Virus record (IMG/VR): IMGVR_UViG_2563366806_000002
Strand: one strand, 5' to 3'
DNA from: a virus
Lineage: Duplodnaviria > Heunggongvirae > Uroviricota > Caudoviricetes
DNA: 32,811 nucleotides
Shown piece by piece: positions 4,803 to 10,373 of this stretch (positions are counted from its first letter, which is position 1; every line of letters starts with the position of its first letter). The position numbers and the translations under genes are program-made. Under the pieces are notes generated by a model. That model was given only the letters and a program-made list of their open reading frames with translations. It did not search any database and had not been told where the DNA came from.

Positions 4803-5014
4803 GCATGAAACAGAATAAGAGCGCGGTTTTATCATCAATCCAAAATGTTGCTGTTTTCTTCAATTACGGCGGTGAAACAGTAGCGTTAAAAATGACAGCC
4901 GAACAAAAGAGAGTGATCGGCCTGTTTGCTATTTCAGCCGTTGAAGGTACTGCGGAACTGGTGCGGGTGCCTCATTTGTCATTACCAGCAGATCCAGAAA
5001 TGGAGGCTCTGTAA
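4799..5014 (+). CDS. Hypothetical protein
   Basis: 71-aa ORF, ATGA overlap with the upstream gene. Confidence 0.5.
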   Translation: MSMKQNKSAVLSSIQNVAVFFNYGGETVALKMTAEQKRVIGLFAISAVEGTAELVRVPHLSLPADPEMEAL

Positions 5015-5322
5015 TGTCAAAAATCTATATCGCTGGCCCAATGAGCGGTTTGCCTGGCTTTAATCGCCCGGCGTTTCACCGTGCAGCCGCGCACATTGTA
5101 CGGCGCGGAAATGTTGCTCTTAATCCGGCGATCCTGCCGGATGGCTTAGAGCAAGCGGAGTATGTGGATATCTGCCTTGCCATGCTTCGCTGCGCTGATG
5201 GCATCTTCATGCTGGACGGTTGGCAGCAGTCTGCTGGGGCAAAAGCAGAATACGCGCTTGCTGAAAAGTTGGGGCTGGATATTCAGCACCAGATGATTGA
5301 TCGGTACGTGGGCGCACGATGA
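5014..5322 (+). CDS. DUF4406-like (nucleoside 2-deoxyribosyltransferase-like) protein
   Basis: 102 aa, IYIAGPMSG motif; translationally coupled on both sides. Confidence 0.55.
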   Translation: MSKIYIAGPMSGLPGFNRPAFHRAAAHIVRRGNVALNPAILPDGLEQAEYVDICLAMLRCADGIFMLDGWQQSAGAKAEYALAEKLGLDIQHQMIDRYVGAR

Positions 5323-7928
5323 CCACCGCAGCAAGTGGGCGTGGCGCTCCAACGCCGCCCCATCCGTATCCGGGTAGCGCACCAGACGCCACCCGGTACG
5401 CTTACGAATGGCAGAAGCCGAAAGCTGCCATTTGTGTTGATAAGACTCCCGTTGTTGATCTAGTCGAGCTGGGTCAAGAACAGGAGTTTTTGGCGTGGGT
5501 GAAAGTTACCCTTGCGCCGCTACCTCGCTTTATTCGCCTGCGTCTGGCTTCCCGCATTGACAGTATTCACACCATGAAGGGCAGACACATCGCCCGTCTG
5601 GCGCTACGCGATATCATTCGCAGGGATCTGCCACCCATCAACATGGTTAATGAGCAATACGCTATTGCGATGACCGATGAGGCTGAATCTCAGGCTGATA
5701 CAGCATTCAAAGGGGTAAACCCGCTTTACCACACGTTTAACACTCTTCACGGATTGGTTGAGCGCTTTAACCGCCTGCCGGACTTCACGCCGGAAGATGT
5801 TGAGCTGCTGGCGCAGGATATTGCTATCTATATGCGGTCTGTGCTGAGCGAAGTTCACGAGACGGTAGAGACGCAGAGTGATCGCAAATATGCCGAATAC
5901 CTTTACACCGAAGCGGCTATCCTCGCGCGGCTTTTCTTCCTGACGCCTCCAAGCTGGGAAAAGTATTGCCGGGGCGCGCTGTTTATTGATGAAGCTACTA
6001 CCGGCATCAGAAAGATGCTGGATGATCGCTATTGGCACCGTAACCTGAAAAAGTACGCTGCGCGCTGGCGCGAGCACCTGCACATTGCCTTTGGTGACGT
6101 GAAGCGGGGCGCTGCACCGTATTGCAGTAAGCACCATGTTGATGAGTGGGATGCCAGGCGTAAACGTAGCCGCGCGATCATGGCCCGTCTTGAACTGGAA
6201 GACCAGGACACCAAAGAGCGCATTTCACTTATTGAGCAGATCGATAAGAGCATTTCTAACCCGGCATTGCGCCGCGTTGAACTCATGACCCGCATTGGTG
6301 GTTTTGAGAAAGTAGCCACCGAAAGCGGCTATGCAGGCCAGTTTTTTACTCTGACAGCACCATCCAAATACCACGCCTATACCGTATTCGGTCATCGTAA
6401 TGCCAAATGGAACGGTGCCAGCCCAAGAGCAACGCAGCGCTACCTTAACCGGGTATGGCAAAAGATTCGTGCTGAGCTTGCCCGCCGTGAAATTCCGGTC
6501 TTTGGCCTGCGGGTGGCTGAGTCACACCACGATGGTACGCCGCACTGGCACGGCCTGTTGTTTTCCCTGCCGGAACATTCCGCCGAGTTGCTGGAAGTTA
6601 TGGAAGACTACGCAACCCGTGAGGATGCGGAAGAATTACAAGGTAAACACGGCAACCAACCGCGCTTTGATATGAAGCCGATCGATCATGAAATCGGCAG
6701 CGCCACCGGCTACGTGGTGAAGTACATCAGTAAGAATATTGACGGCTACGCGCTCGACGGCGAAACGGATGACGAGAGCGGCAGGCCACTGAAAGAAACA
6801 TCAAAACACGCTACCGCCTGGGCATCGTGCTGGGGCATCCGTCAGTTTCAGTTTTTGGGCGGTGCGCCGGTATCTGTCTGGCGTGAGCTGCGCCGGTTCC
6901 GCAATCAGGAGCAGGCCGACAAGATAAACCCGCTGTTTGCTGAGCTGCACCGCGCAGCGGATGCTGGCGACTGGCAGCAATACACCAAATTGCAGGGTGG
7001 GGCGCTGGTTGCCCGCCGTGATCTACCGTTGCGCATCTGGTACCAGCAGAAAGAAGAGCCAAATGATTACGGCGAGTATCTGGATCTTATTAAAGGTCTG
7101 GTGATGCCCGCTGCTCACATCCCACCAATTGAAACCCGCCTGCATACCTACCGCATTGTGCGTAAGAAACCGGAGGTTTTAGACGACTCCGGGCAGGCCG
7201 TTGACTTTGATTTTGACCTTCGGGGCGCGTCCGCGCCCTCTAGGACTCGTGTCAATAACTGTACTGAGGTCAAAAAACATACAAATTCAGGGGGTGACAA
7301 TTCGCCACCAGTTGAGCCTGAACAGTATGAAATTGGTCAAATGACCCACGAGCAGAAAAAACGGCTCAATGAAAGCATCAGAAACTACAAACCGGAACGG
7401 CAAAAATCACCTGCTGATGAGTTTGAGGCGCTGGCTAATGCCATTACGGCATCAGATTGTGATGATATTGAGCAGGCCAGGGCGGAGAGCTATCTAAAAG
7501 TTGCTCAAGAATTGAGGCAGCAGGAAAGGGATATGCCTGCTGTTACCGCGCCAGCTCCTATATCAGCCGATCGCATTGCGGCACTGGATGATTTTGCCAG
7601 ATCAATAGGCATAGAGCTGAGCACAGGCCAGTTATCGTTATTGCTACGCGGTGAGTGTTTGCGAATTGATGGCTTTATTGTCTCCGCAACCAGTAGCGGA
7701 GAGCTGAGACGCAGAAAAGATAACAGCGCTGACCGGAAGACCGCCGATTTGTGGCAGCATATGAAGCTAAGTCATAATGTTGACAGCAGAGATATCAGGC
7801 ATGATCCCGTTGGCAGCTATGCGGAAATGTTGAAAAAAGCTGATCCGGCTGCGTGGGACAGGTTGTTTGGTACCAGGAATCAGGAGCAGCGCGTATGTTT
7901 GACGAAGAACAGCGAGAGCAGGAAGTAA
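5319..7928 (+). CDS. A: Replication initiation endonuclease (P2 gpA-like rolling-circle initiator) with long C-terminal extension
   Basis: 869 aa; HUH-type segment ESHHDGTPHWHGLLF and catalytic Tyr region YVVKYISKNIDGY. Confidence 0.9.
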   Translation: MTTAASGRGAPTPPHPYPGSAPDATRYAYEWQKPKAAICVDKTPVVDLVELGQEQEFLAWVKVTLAPLPRFIRLRLASRIDSIHTMKGRHIARLALRDIIRRDLPPINMVNEQYAIAMTDEAESQADTAFKGVNPLYHTFNTLHGLVERFNRLPDFTPEDVELLAQDIAIYMRSVLSEVHETVETQSDRKYAEYLYTEAAILARLFFLTPPSWEKYCRGALFIDEATTGIRKMLDDRYWHRNLKKYAARWREHLHIAFGDVKRGAAPYCSKHHVDEWDARRKRSRAIMARLELEDQDTKERISLIEQIDKSISNPALRRVELMTRIGGFEKVATESGYAGQFFTLTAPSKYHAYTVFGHRNAKWNGASPRATQRYLNRVWQKIRAELARREIPVFGLRVAESHHDGTPHWHGLLFSLPEHSAELLEVMEDYATREDAEELQGKHGNQPRFDMKPIDHEIGSATGYVVKYISKNIDGYALDGETDDESGRPLKETSKHATAWASCWGIRQFQFLGGAPVSVWRELRRFRNQEQADKINPLFAELHRAADAGDWQQYTKLQGGALVARRDLPLRIWYQQKEEPNDYGEYLDLIKGLVMPAAHIPPIETRLHTYRIVRKKPEVLDDSGQAVDFDFDLRGASAPSRTRVNNCTEVKKHTNSGGDNSPPVEPEQYEIGQMTHEQKKRLNESIRNYKPERQKSPADEFEALANAITASDCDDIEQARAESYLKVAQELRQQERDMPAVTAPAPISADRIAALDDFARSIGIELSTGQLSLLLRGECLRIDGFIVSATSSGELRRRKDNSADRKTADLWQHMKLSHNVDSRDIRHDPVGSYAEMLKKADPAAWDRLFGTRNQEQRVCLTKNSESRK
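7221..7240. other. GC hairpin (GGGCGCG-tc-CGCGCCC) followed by AT-rich DNA inside the 3' part of A; candidate replication origin
   Basis: Palindrome read from sequence; in P2 the ori lies within the 3' part of gene A (recalled). Confidence 0.35.
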
Positions 7929-8404
7929 TTGATTTCATCAGTAACAAAATTAAGCGATGCCGTAAGTGTGGTAACGAGCTGCACTACAAGGAAAAGTATT
8001 ATTTTAATGATCGCATTTGCTGCACCTGCAAGGGGTTAAAACCGTTTGACGCTCCCGAAGATATTGCTTTGTCTGAAAGCTGCGAGCCAGAACCAGCGCG
8101 GCTGGCAGATGAAGGCCATGATGCGCGAACCAGTACCGAGCGTGAGCTATTTAGCCGATATCCCGAATGGCAGTTGATGAATGAGAGGGCGGCAAAGAAA
8201 TGGCGTGAAGAGCATCCGCCTGAAGAAAGCAGTCTCCCATCTTCCCGATCAGCGGTAAATTCCGCAGGCCCATTATCTGTTGAGCGCATCAATGAGCTGA
8301 TGGCTAAATATGATGCCAGCGAAGCCGTGGATATCAGGCAGGAAGAGCTGATATCGCTGCTGTGGGAAGTGCTCTATCACCGCAAGATTAATCCAGTCTT
8401 CTGA
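7895..8404 (+). CDS. Acidic zinc-ribbon protein of unknown function (track ORF starts 7853; ATG 7895 with RBS AGGAGC more likely)
   Basis: CRKCGNELHYKEKYYFNDRICCTCKG Cys cluster followed by D/E-rich sequence; overlaps the 3' end of A. Confidence 0.5.
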   Translation: MFDEEQREQEVIDFISNKIKRCRKCGNELHYKEKYYFNDRICCTCKGLKPFDAPEDIALSESCEPEPARLADEGHDARTSTERELFSRYPEWQLMNERAAKKWREEHPPEESSLPSSRSAVNSAGPLSVERINELMAKYDASEAVDIRQEELISLLWEVLYHRKINPVF

Positions 8405-8610
8405 ATGGCAATCGTTATAACCTTCGCAACTTGTTGCGCAGGTTATGGCGATTCTGCGGGCGCGGGCGGCAAAGAGTCCGCAGCATCGCGAAGCGGTGCT
8501 TATGCTGTGTGCGTTTTTGGAAATGAGAGCTGAAACAATAATTTTAGTCATTACAGGCACTAATCTGACTAAGCCCATTTGGGTGACTAGTCAAATTTAA
8601 AGGAATAGAA

Positions 8611-8916
8611 ATGCCAAAAATGAAAGATGGGGATCTGCTTTATAAAGATTACGTTAACCACGCCCGATCAGCTGGTGACGACCCAACCAAGATTATTTCA
8701 GATGCCAAGCGCTTTAACAGGCATGAAAAGTATGAGGTGCTTGATTTTCTTAATGCACTGCATGGACAGAACGGGGCAGACCTCGCCATCAAAACACGGC
8801 AAATTTGTGAGTGGATGATTCGCACCTATCTGCCTGGCACGATTCAAAGCACAAAAGCTGTTGAATCATGGGTTGCTGCAAACTTCGAAGAGCTTTCTAA
8901 AAAGTATCCATATTGA
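8611..8916 (+). CDS. Hypothetical 101-aa protein, AT-rich stand-alone moron
   Basis: AT-rich ORF with RBS AAAGGAA, 200-bp upstream gap, and a strong terminator directly after. Confidence 0.55.
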   Translation: MPKMKDGDLLYKDYVNHARSAGDDPTKIISDAKRFNRHEKYEVLDFLNALHGQNGADLAIKTRQICEWMIRTYLPGTIQSTKAVESWVAANFEELSKKYPY

Positions 8917-8933
8917 TGATTTTCATCTCTAAA

Positions 8934-8957
8934 GGCCGTCATTGATGGCCTTTTTTT
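8934..8957 (+). terminator. Rho-independent terminator
   Basis: GGCCGTCA..TGATGGCC stem followed by T7 run. Confidence 0.75.
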
Positions 8958-8965
8958 ATTTTCTG

Positions 8966-9080
8966 TAGAAATTGCCGCACAATCCCGCATTAAATTGCAC
9001 AATTTTTTTGACGGTACTTTTGCCAGACAAGCCCAGACGCGGCGCGGCCTGCCGTGATCTGCAAGTTTGCACAAAAAGAC
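8966..9080. repeat. Three direct (A)TTGC(A)CAA(T) repeats upstream of cos; candidate terminase/IHF recognition elements
   Basis: aaATTGCcgCACAAT, aaATTGCACAATtt, gTTTGCACAAAaa read from sequence. Confidence 0.35.
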
Positions 9081-9096: not shown

Positions 9097-9115
9097 GGCG
9101 AGGCGGGGGAACCAT
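9097..9115. other. cos-like site GGCGAGGCGGGGGAACCAT
   Basis: Close match to the recalled 19-nt P2/186 cohesive end (GGCGAGGCGGGGAAAGCAC); in the expected position beside the portal gene. Confidence 0.55.
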
Positions 9116-9326: not shown

Positions 9327-10373
9327 TCAGGCGGCTGTTGGTGGGGATGCGAGGGCGTAAGGGTTAAAGCGGATCACCTCAAAGCCCAGCCAGTCATTCA
9401 GCTCCTTCAGGCTTTCTTGTATCGGCGTCAGCTCGTTGATGGAGAAGACGCGGGCGGCTTTCTCAACGTCACCAAACCCCCCGGCGTTGCCTGGCATCAC
9501 CCCCATCAGTTGAGGCGGAACGCGGTGCGCGGCAAGCATATCATCCCGCGTTGCGTCCTTGATGCCGGTAAACTCATCCTTTGCCGCTATCTGGCTGAAT
9601 GGCAGGATTTGCAAGCCGTCTTTCTTCCCGCCTGCTGCGTATACGAACAGGTTTTTAAAAGCGCCACCGCCGCGCGCATCTTTCAATGATTTTTTCAGGC
9701 TCTCAACGTCTTTGTTGTTGGCGATCGGGTCGGTCAGGTAGACGATTACCCCGGCATGACTGCCGTTGATGTAGTAGTTGCGGCGGAACATGGTCGCTTC
9801 ACTGTTGAGCATGGCGCTTTGTAACGAGGCCATGTATTCAGGTGCGCCGTAGATCTCCTGGTGGATGCTGGGGTTTTTTATCTGGCAGATGCTGCCCGGC
9901 TTGAATGGGTAGTCCGCATCACGGCGGGTGATAAACCAGTATTGATCTTTTTTCAGGTCGCTGCCGCGTCGGGTATATTTGGCCTGGGCGTGTTTTAACG
10001 CAATAGGCTCGCCCAGCATGTTACGGCGCACCTCCATGTAGTTGTTGCCGAATACCAGATAATCCAGCACCCACGCGCTCATTTCCTGCCTGCTCAGCAG
10101 CGGGTGAGGGATGTAGCAGGATGTGATCACATTACGCTTAAAGACCAGCGGCGACTGATGATAGGCCGTTGAATCAAACATCCGGGCGATGCCGTAGGGG
10201 CTGATCGGTGGTTCAAAATATACGCCGTTATCAGCGCACTCCATGCAATCCAGCAACATGCTGCGATCGGTGATAGCTACCGGGTCGCCAAAGCTGAATG
10301 ACTCAATGCCTGCGGTTTGTTCGCTGGCACCCGGCTGCGGTCTGGCCTGAAACTTTTGCTTTTTGCGGCTCAC
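9327..10373 (-). CDS. Q: Portal protein (P2 gpQ-like)
   Basis: 348-aa ORF with P2 Q-type sequence; leftward with P as in P2. Confidence 0.9.
   Translation of the reverse strand: MSRKKQKFQARPQPGASEQTAGIESFSFGDPVAITDRSMLLDCMECADNGVYFEPPISPYGIARMFDSTAYHQSPLVFKRNVITSCYIPHPLLSRQEMSAWVLDYLVFGNNYMEVRRNMLGEPIALKHAQAKYTRRGSDLKKDQYWFITRRDADYPFKPGSICQIKNPSIHQEIYGAPEYMASLQSAMLNSEATMFRRNYYINGSHAGVIVYLTDPIANNKDVESLKKSLKDARGGGAFKNLFVYAAGGKKDGLQILPFSQIAAKDEFTGIKDATRDDMLAAHRVPPQLMGVMPGNAGGFGDVEKAARVFSINELTPIQESLKELNDWLGFEVIRFNPYALASPPTAA

Follow-up and report, generated by a model that had tools for sequence, protein, structure and literature searches.

A putative P2-type replication origin and an exchangeable C-terminal tail in gene A of an Escherichia coli P2-like prophage

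The stretch of DNA analysed here (the window; 32,811 nucleotides (nt), IMG/VR record IMGVR_UViG_2563366806_000002) is a P2-like (Peduoviridae-type) prophage of Escherichia coli, and its gene A encodes a predicted replication endonuclease of 869 amino acids (aa). A hairpin rich in guanine and cytosine (GC) in the 3' part of this gene very probably marks an origin of replication (ori) of the P2 type, with the coding sequence 3' of it specifying a modular tail that can be swapped. An origin of this type is already known; new are the detail on the tail modules and the position of the left edge of variability, which lies inside A.

The 3,086 nt that hold gene A and the downstream gene orf169 (5319-8404) match the chromosome of E. 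coli ECONIH4 at 100%. The ECONIH4 prophage adjoins cpxP, and the whole A gene is carried by only eight of 5,426 complete E. coli genomes. Queried with gene A by megablast, a set of 50,697 phage records gave no match at the DNA level, and tblastn was needed. The relatives counted below are 80 related loci taken from IMG/VR, from which the ori block was extracted; single loci are numbered with an L.

A P2-type initiator with a predicted origin inside its own gene

Judged by family profile and catalytic motifs, the gene A product is a P2/186-type gpA rolling-circle initiator. It matches Pfam PF05840 (Phage_GPA) with E=1.4e-100 over aa 160-477 (profile positions 2-321 of 321) and phrog_91, 'nicking at origin of replication', with E=3e-252; phrog_6857 spans aa 225-858. 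The match to PF23343 (REP_ORF2-G2P) is weak (E=8e-6, below the Pfam cut-off), and a sequence search against the PDB returned no match. PGAP annotates the protein at the identical ECONIH4 locus as 'replication endonuclease' (WP_001514718.1). Identity is 42% to 186 A and 34% to P2 A, and both the HUH motif and the paired tyrosines Y465 and Y469 (GYVVKYISKNIDGY, lined up with P2 GYIAKYISKNIDGY) are invariant in the alignment with these two proteins. Both tyrosines of P2 A are catalytic according to Odegrip & Haggard-Ljungquist 2001, as cited in PMC3986222. By annotated coding sequence (CDS) coordinates, A of P2 has 761 aa and A of 186 has 694 aa; an earlier note on this DNA, made from the sequence without database searches, had stated that the 869-aa protein is longer than P2 A, and this is confirmed.

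The same note had expected a P2-type origin within the 3' part of A, and this is where we find it. The block at 7221-7265 (codons 635-649 of the 869) matches the annotated nick site of P2 (NC_001895:29892) and the annotated rep_origin of 186 (U32222:28576) in a base-for-base alignment, which supports its assignment as a P2-type rolling-circle ori, a known kind of ori. The sequences around the nick read GCGCCTCGGAGTCCTGTCAATAACTGT in P2, GCGCCCTCTCGGAGTTCTGTCAATAACTGTAC in 186 and, from 7233, GCGCCCTCTAGGACTCGTGTCAATAACTGTAC in the window. A conserved core, (N)GG-N7-GTCAATAACTGT, is present in register with the mapped P2 nick, and the ori core is matched only once in the window. Positions 7243 and 7244 align with the 'nick site at ori' of P2 (first G of CGGAG) and the rep_origin of 186 (second G), respectively. 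Since P2 is thus annotated at one G of the pair and 186 at the other, we place the predicted nick between G7243 and G7244; the bond cut would be this one to within 1 nt, and the cut strand would be the plus strand. The hairpin region had been proposed as a candidate nick site. The hairpin does lie at the 5' edge of the P2/186-aligned block, but the predicted nick falls 5 nt downstream of it and not inside it.

The ori block was found in essentially all 80 relatives, and 18 columns are invariant across 50 distinct ori sequences, including the GG at 7243-7244. The codons for V-N-N-C are nearly fixed (GTC in 78/80, AAT, AAC and TGT each in 80/80). The codon at the nick is NGG in every relative (CGG 56, TGG 12, AGG 10, GGG 2): its first base is free and the encoded amino acid changes (R/W/G), while the GG does not. 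In 7 of 15 pairwise comparisons no other 45-nt window of gene A is as conserved as the block, and in five more it ranks within the top few percent. Judged by these frozen synonymous sites, by the conservation peak and by a co-varying stem (see below), selection acts on the ori DNA itself, beyond what the protein needs.

Two GTTGAY-type repeats precede the block. Of the 80 relatives, 63 have the TTGAY motif at the proximal and 56 at the distal position, and the Val codon of the repeats is GTT in 37 of 37 proximal and 56 of 57 distal cases. Read on the other strand, TTGAC gives the GTCAA of the ori core. The repeats are possible initiator-binding sites, and they and the hairpin may take part in recognition.

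The block encodes LRGASAPSRTRVNNC (aa 635-649), in the middle of a linker that is predicted to be disordered: the full-length AlphaFold2 model gives residues 620-675 a predicted local distance difference test score (pLDDT) below 50 and no secondary structure, and residues 1-19 of a model of the tail by itself likewise score below 50. A block encoded in such a linker could be fixed as DNA at little cost to the protein.

One relative, L019 (~4807-4864), has an A core that is only ~45% identical to that of the window and yet carries the window-type ori haplotype (AGGACTCGT...ACT), not the 186-type (CGGAGTTCT...ACG). Its DNA similarity to the window stops exactly at 7265, and its tail (268 aa) is of a different kind.

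The hairpin 5' of the predicted nick

The GC hairpin reported in the earlier note (GGGCGCG-tc-CGCGCCC) is real. Its stem encodes G-A-S-A-P, and one could regard it as a by-product of coding for Gly-Ala-x-Ala-Pro, given that GGN GCN ... GCN CCN is palindromic, or as an element of the mRNA, in either case outside a DNA origin. The exact coincidence of stem and codons is what this alternative predicts, and GC-rich 7-bp hairpins are only about twofold enriched in the window (4 against 1.7 expected from shuffles), which makes a single hairpin unremarkable. As single-stranded DNA (ssDNA), the 45-nt ori segment folds with -8.8 kcal/mol (z = -2.3). When nine lineages were folded in this way, the hairpin appeared at the same place in eight of them, with six different stem sequences, and the predicted hairpins always stopped 4-6 nt short of the GG. 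The ninth lineage (L078/L081) retains the ori core without a hairpin, so the hairpin may be auxiliary.

The stem also co-varies. Among the relatives, 87.8% of cells are paired, compared with 83.5% in shuffles (0/500 reach the observed value); five of eight stem pairs are changed on both sides, one of them reading GC in 34 and AU in 11 sequences. In 16-17 of the 80 sequences the paired change GGC to GAC and CCC to TCC replaces Gly by Asp and Pro by Ser, which argues that the stem is maintained at the expense of the protein. Codon choice in the stem is frozen (GGC 60/61, GCG 73/77, CCC 56/57), and the hairpin of the P2 type is shifted by one codon with a nick distance that is still similar. Both points argue against a coding by-product. 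The covariation fits an mRNA stem as well as a DNA stem. The hairpin is not a terminator, as no T-run follows it. Taken with these points, a hairpin that has nothing to do with a DNA origin is unlikely.

A perfect 9-bp inverted repeat (TTTTGACCT / AGGTCAAAA, 7211-7219 / 7267-7275) brackets the hairpin and the nick, and closes an ssDNA fold of -13.9 kcal/mol (z = -3.5). We considered it as a general part of the ori and rejected it: the 3' arm occurs in few relatives only, and the repeat is taken as lineage-specific. L013 carries a shifted 8-bp version.

Modules of the tail

Every gpA homolog has a post-ori tail of variable kind. After VNNC it measures 221 aa in the window, compared with 135 aa in P2 and 77 aa in 186; among the 120 closest homologs it measures 95-234 aa (mostly 173-234), and across homologs it ranges from 44 to 268 aa. 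Since some homologs have tails of only 44-77 aa, the chemistry of nicking should in principle not depend on the tail. In the full-length AlphaFold2 model (mean pLDDT 65) the folded core extends to about residue 615, residues 677-737 form helices and residues 750-850 form a helix / three-strand / helix domain.

We divide the tail into two modules, M1 and M2. M1 begins with the rest of the linker and a basic helix (MTHEQKKRLNESIRNYK), the first helix of the tail. The basic-helix motif was found in 155 of 198 distinct gpA tails and in seven shuffled tails, and its presence in so many of them suggests that it is ancestral. In the tail model, helices H29-40, H50-63 and H68-90 have pLDDT values of 81-94. 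M1 is common to the window clade only, at 45-80% identity. M2 is predicted with pLDDT 85-93 over most of its length, and it matches phrog_6857 (E=5e-16) and the general gpA family phrog_91 (E=1e-5). Searches of the tail against Pfam, PADLOC and, by sequence, PDB gave no match, and Foldseek found no fold match (best E=0.63 in PDB and 0.075 in BFVD). The final ~15 aa of A may owe their conservation solely to the overlap with orf169.

Three candidate features of the tail were considered and set aside. Homology of M2 to the P2 tail is not supported by hhalign (E=0.13, probability 0.5%). QLSLLL (aa 771-776), considered as a beta-clamp-binding motif, lies inside a confidently predicted helix of the folded domain, and its position 4 is unconserved in M2 homologs; we judge it a coincidence. 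A Cro/CI-like helix-turn-helix in ARSIGIELSTGQLSLLLRG has a spacing that is two residues off and no fold support, and is speculation.

In an Enterobacter cloacae fragment (P0004; window ~7419-7571), aa 701-751 are deleted between the short repeats ...SPAD and ...SAD. The deletion removes the M1 helical hairpin and keeps M2; the M1 hairpin may thus be dispensable, or this copy may be decaying.

Mosaic junctions and a mobile tail

Identity to prophages that are otherwise 94-100% identical collapses directly 3' of the ori block (junction J1). The prophage of E. coli CFSAN051542 (L003) is 94-100% identical to the window up to ~7260, then ~50-70%, and finally shows no similarity; in steps, identity is 100% in 7238-7259, 0.83 in 7260-7289 and 0.53 and lower afterwards. 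L009 and L010 break at the same junction, and the megablast hits H67 and H68 both end at query position 1971, which is window 7289. Cores that are 97% identical carry tails that are 42-52% identical over part of their length only, whereas cores that are 59-69% identical carry tails that are 67-68% identical over their full length. Over 6,670 pairs, core and tail identity correlate with r = 0.30, and in 40% of the pairs with cores at least 95% identical the last 100 aa are unrelated.

M2 shows the same independence. It is 56-71% identical on cores that are only 40-59% identical (L015, L020, L022 and L095) and 35% identical on L021 (core 44% identical), while the 97%-identical cores of L003, L008 and L009 lack it. 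A scan of genome contigs for M2 found one locus only. The gene that follows often travels with it: a homolog of orf169 comes after M2 in five of eight independent lineages, including those with cores only 40-44% identical. P0014, considered as a tail fused to an orf169-like zinc ribbon, was rejected (BLASTP E=1.4).

An end of the protein that is weakly constrained and diverges fast, by relaxed selection and not by exchange of modules, would also yield a disordered linker after the ori, tails of 44 to 268 aa and the graded identity of M1 within the clade. It would hardly yield a domain that is confidently folded in prediction (pLDDT ~90) and better conserved between distant lineages than the nuclease core, nor non-homologous tails on 97%-identical cores, nor an identity step from 100% to ~50% within 30 nt. 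Core and tail are, moreover, already incongruent. We consider this explanation very improbable.

The earlier note had proposed that the C-terminal region may be an acquired domain. Capture of the last ~220 aa from an unrelated protein would account for a tail with lower GC and GC at third codon positions (GC3) than the core, for the lack of detected similarity to the P2 tail and of a Pfam family, and for the sharp junction 3' of the ori. In an exhaustive HMMER search of 1.84 billion representatives, however, the tail drew only 40 hits. Those inspected, 11 fetched sequences and full-length gpA hits with 792-856 aa, are either gpA proteins or fragments from the 3' part of an A gene. M2 is covered by the general gpA family, the 120 closest homologs typically have tails of 173-234 aa, and most gpA proteins share the basic helix at the tail start. 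Capture of a foreign domain is accordingly very improbable. What remains of the proposal is a module that is inherited separately, recombines and is unlike the P2 tail; its length is normal for the clade. By these comparisons the post-ori tail is an exchangeable gpA module and was not captured from elsewhere. Nor is it a universal gpA domain conserved across all homologs, given that the P2 tail is not matched by a profile of M2.

In Citrobacter koseri (L005-L007, ~5001-6323) only a 3' remnant of A is present, consisting of the ori block, an M1+M2 tail (a 254-aa open reading frame (ORF)) and an orf169 homolog. Its neighbours are AlpA and DUF927 primase-like genes, as is typical of P4-like satellites, and a 925-aa ORF without a Pfam match comes after it.

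Base composition and points against the joint reading

The sequence after the hairpin had been described as AT-richer. GC is 54.9% in the core (5319-7265; GC3 0.59) and 48.9% in the tail (7266-7925; GC3 0.49), and 17% of 660-nt phage windows are as AT-rich as the A tail. From A to the cos region (5319-9050), the best single change point is at 7250, with a log-likelihood ratio (LLR) of 11.8 (p<0.001; maximum 9.5 in 1000 block shuffles). The A tail forms the left shoulder of a ~1.8-kb region of lower GC (47.3%). The break is small and modest, but real.

Several observations weigh against the joint reading of origin and swappable tail, in addition to the lineage that keeps the ori core without a hairpin and the equal fit of the covariation to an mRNA hairpin. 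Within A taken by itself, the same change point at 7250 is not significant (LLR 4.65, where the 95th percentile in codon shuffles is 5.26). The strongest low-GC island lies further 3' (8500-9010, GC 0.40) and contains orf101; a two-change-point segmentation chose this island and not the ori (LLR 22.9, null maximum 11.4). The nick position rests on annotations, of which that of P2 is mapped and that of 186 was itself assigned by similarity. The junction of L008 lies at ~7410-7500, within M1 and not at the ori, which indicates that ordinary recombination also operates. Finally, the function of the tail has no support from family or fold matches.

A possible mechanism

The reading of origin and modular tail, which we regard as very probable despite these points, would work as follows. 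The A protein, an HUH endonuclease with two catalytic tyrosines, would recognise the ~45-nt block (GC stem-loop, single-stranded spacer and GTCAATAACTGT), cut the plus strand at G7243/G7244 and become linked to the 5' end, and the free 3'-OH would prime leading-strand synthesis. The tail 3' of the block is modular: a basic helix found in nearly all gpA proteins is followed by a helical hairpin specific to the clade (M1) and a terminal domain that is predicted to be folded (M2). It is inherited apart from the nuclease core, along with the accessory genes that vary between A and cos, and the invariant ori block would be the left-hand recombination boundary of that region. Such a boundary would explain both the drop in GC and the unusual length of the protein. 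The most likely role of the tail is that of an adaptor, either to another protein or to DNA; orf169 would be the most plausible partner, a suggestion that we make tentatively.

The ori might also be an active point of exchange catalysed by A, and not only a passive patch of homology. A would then nick G^G on one genome and rejoin the end to the ori of a second P2-like genome residing in the cell, or else the strand displaced from 7244 onwards would invade that second genome. If so, the interval from nick to cos, with the A tail, orf169 and the cargo of a defence hotspot, would change hands as a single cassette, the hotspot would have a site cut by phage enzymes at either edge (ori and cos), and M2 and orf169 would be a portable partner pair riding along. 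We think this unlikely. Between 7243 and 7262 there is no polymorphism, and exchange by A is for that reason inseparable here from ordinary homologous recombination in the invariant block.

Gene neighbourhood and feature coordinates

The features discussed are listed in Table 1. Homology to the closest relatives starts exactly at the A start codon, which suggests that the neighbour upstream of A, a DUF4406 gene, is also a mosaic replacement. On the 3' side of A follow orf169, orf101, an intrinsic terminator, a cos-like site and the portal gene on the minus strand. The product of orf169, annotated by PGAP as a CDS in ECONIH4, has an N-terminal Cys4 motif (CxxC...CxC) and matches phrog_21788 (E=1e-86, function unassigned). 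The cos-like site sits between the terminator of the early operon and the portal gene.

Table 1. Coordinates of gene A, its predicted origin and tail modules, and neighbouring features in the window
Feature	Position	Strand	Details
DUF4406 gene	5014-5322		E=1.7e-31; overlaps A start codon (ATGA)
Gene A, 'replication endonuclease'	5319-7928	+	869 aa
HUH motif	6543-6551	+	H409-W410-H411; invariant in P2 and 186 A and in 60 homologs
Paired tyrosines (YxxxY)	6711-6713 / 6723-6725	+	Y465 / Y469
Coding region of predicted disordered linker	7176-7343	+	aa 620-675; holds ori-encoded peptide
Upstream GTTGAY-type repeats	7200-7205, 7212-7217	+	GTTGAC and tTTGAC, 12 nt apart; candidate binding sites
Ori core block	7221-7265	+	hairpin + CTCTAGGACTCGT + GTCAATAACTGT + ACT
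GC hairpin	7223-7238	+	arms 7223-7229 / 7232-7238; perfect 7-bp arms, 2-nt loop
Predicted nick	7243-7244	+	G^G, bond within 1 nt
Tail module M1	7263-7538	+	aa 649-740; linker, basic helix, helical hairpin aa 698-737
Mosaic junction J1	7265-7290		collapse of identity
Basic helix	7341-7391	+	first helix of tail
Tail module M2	7539-7883	+	aa ~748-855; predicted folded helix / three-strand / helix domain
orf169	7895-8404	+	overlaps last 34 nt of A; AGGAG at 7883-7887, 7 nt upstream of start
orf101	8611-8916		phrog_33929, function unassigned
Intrinsic terminator of early operon	8931-8953		3' of orf101
cos-like site	9097-9115		GGCGAGGCGGGGGAACCAT; 3 mismatches to P2 cohesive end/cosR GGCGAGGCGGGGAAAGCAC
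Portal gene	9327-10373	-	

Comparison with known systems

The ori block of 186 and that of the window are identical at 36 of 45 nt (0.80) over 7221-7265, in the arrangement GCGCCCTCT-GGA----TGTCAATAACTGTAC. As in the window, a GC hairpin lies directly 5' of the block, GTTGAY repeats come before the hairpin, the ori lies ~610-650 codons into A, and the core of the A protein has HUH and YxxxY. The 186 stem differs (AGGGCGC/GCGCCCT, with a 4-nt loop), as does the spacer (CGGAGTTCT in 186, AGGACTCGT in the window), and the 186 tail aligns with that of the window through the basic helix only, without the M1 hairpin and without M2.

In P2, the experimentally mapped nick lies in CG^GAG and is followed by TCCTGTCAATAACTGT. 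A hairpin (GCGGC-atc-GCCGC) again stands 5' of the nick, with the ori inside gene A, and accessory genes that vary (orf91, tin and old) separate A from cos. The P2 hairpin is shorter than that of the window, and its A protein and tail are the divergent ones described above. The C-termini of the A proteins of P88-like phages (Xuanwuvirus) resemble window M2 over tail residues 113-215 (39-40% identity, E ~1e-14), whereas the remaining tail and other parts of these genomes are not closely related.

HUH initiators such as phiX174 gpA, the Rep proteins of pT181 and pMV158 and the relaxases share the general logic of an HUH/Tyr nuclease, a nick within single-stranded DNA beside a stem-loop, and covalent attachment to the 5' end. 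The P2 family differs from these other systems in that the origin is embedded in the coding sequence of the initiator itself.

The interval between gpA and gpQ of P2-like prophages has been described as a hotspot of diversity and of anti-phage systems, delimited by the boundaries of the A and Q genes (Rousset et al. 2022, PMC9122126). The window has the same layout, with A, variable genes, cos and the portal gene Q, and the content of the interval differs in L003, L008 and L009. Unlike in that delimitation, the left break in similarity lies inside A, directly 3' of the ori, and the A tail belongs to the variable unit. PADLOC found no anti-phage system match for orf169, orf101 or the tail. L003 (6593-9945), with 97% identity in the A core, has genes for an AAA family ATPase and an S8 family peptidase after A in place of orf169 and orf101; they are a candidate defence pair in the hotspot.

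Implications

For a lineage of E. coli P2-like prophages that lacks a close deposited phage relative, the analysis gives a prediction of ori and nick at the level of single bases. It does not overturn current understanding of these phages, and three points may be useful for annotating or engineering P2-like elements. The origin appears to be written into a segment that encodes a predicted disordered linker, where compensatory changes maintain the hairpin at the cost of the protein sequence. The variable region that is well known from P2-like phages begins inside A, right after the ori, and not at the stop codon of the gene. And the M2 module of A, judged by its distribution over the related loci, moves between very different initiators, often together with the same downstream gene.

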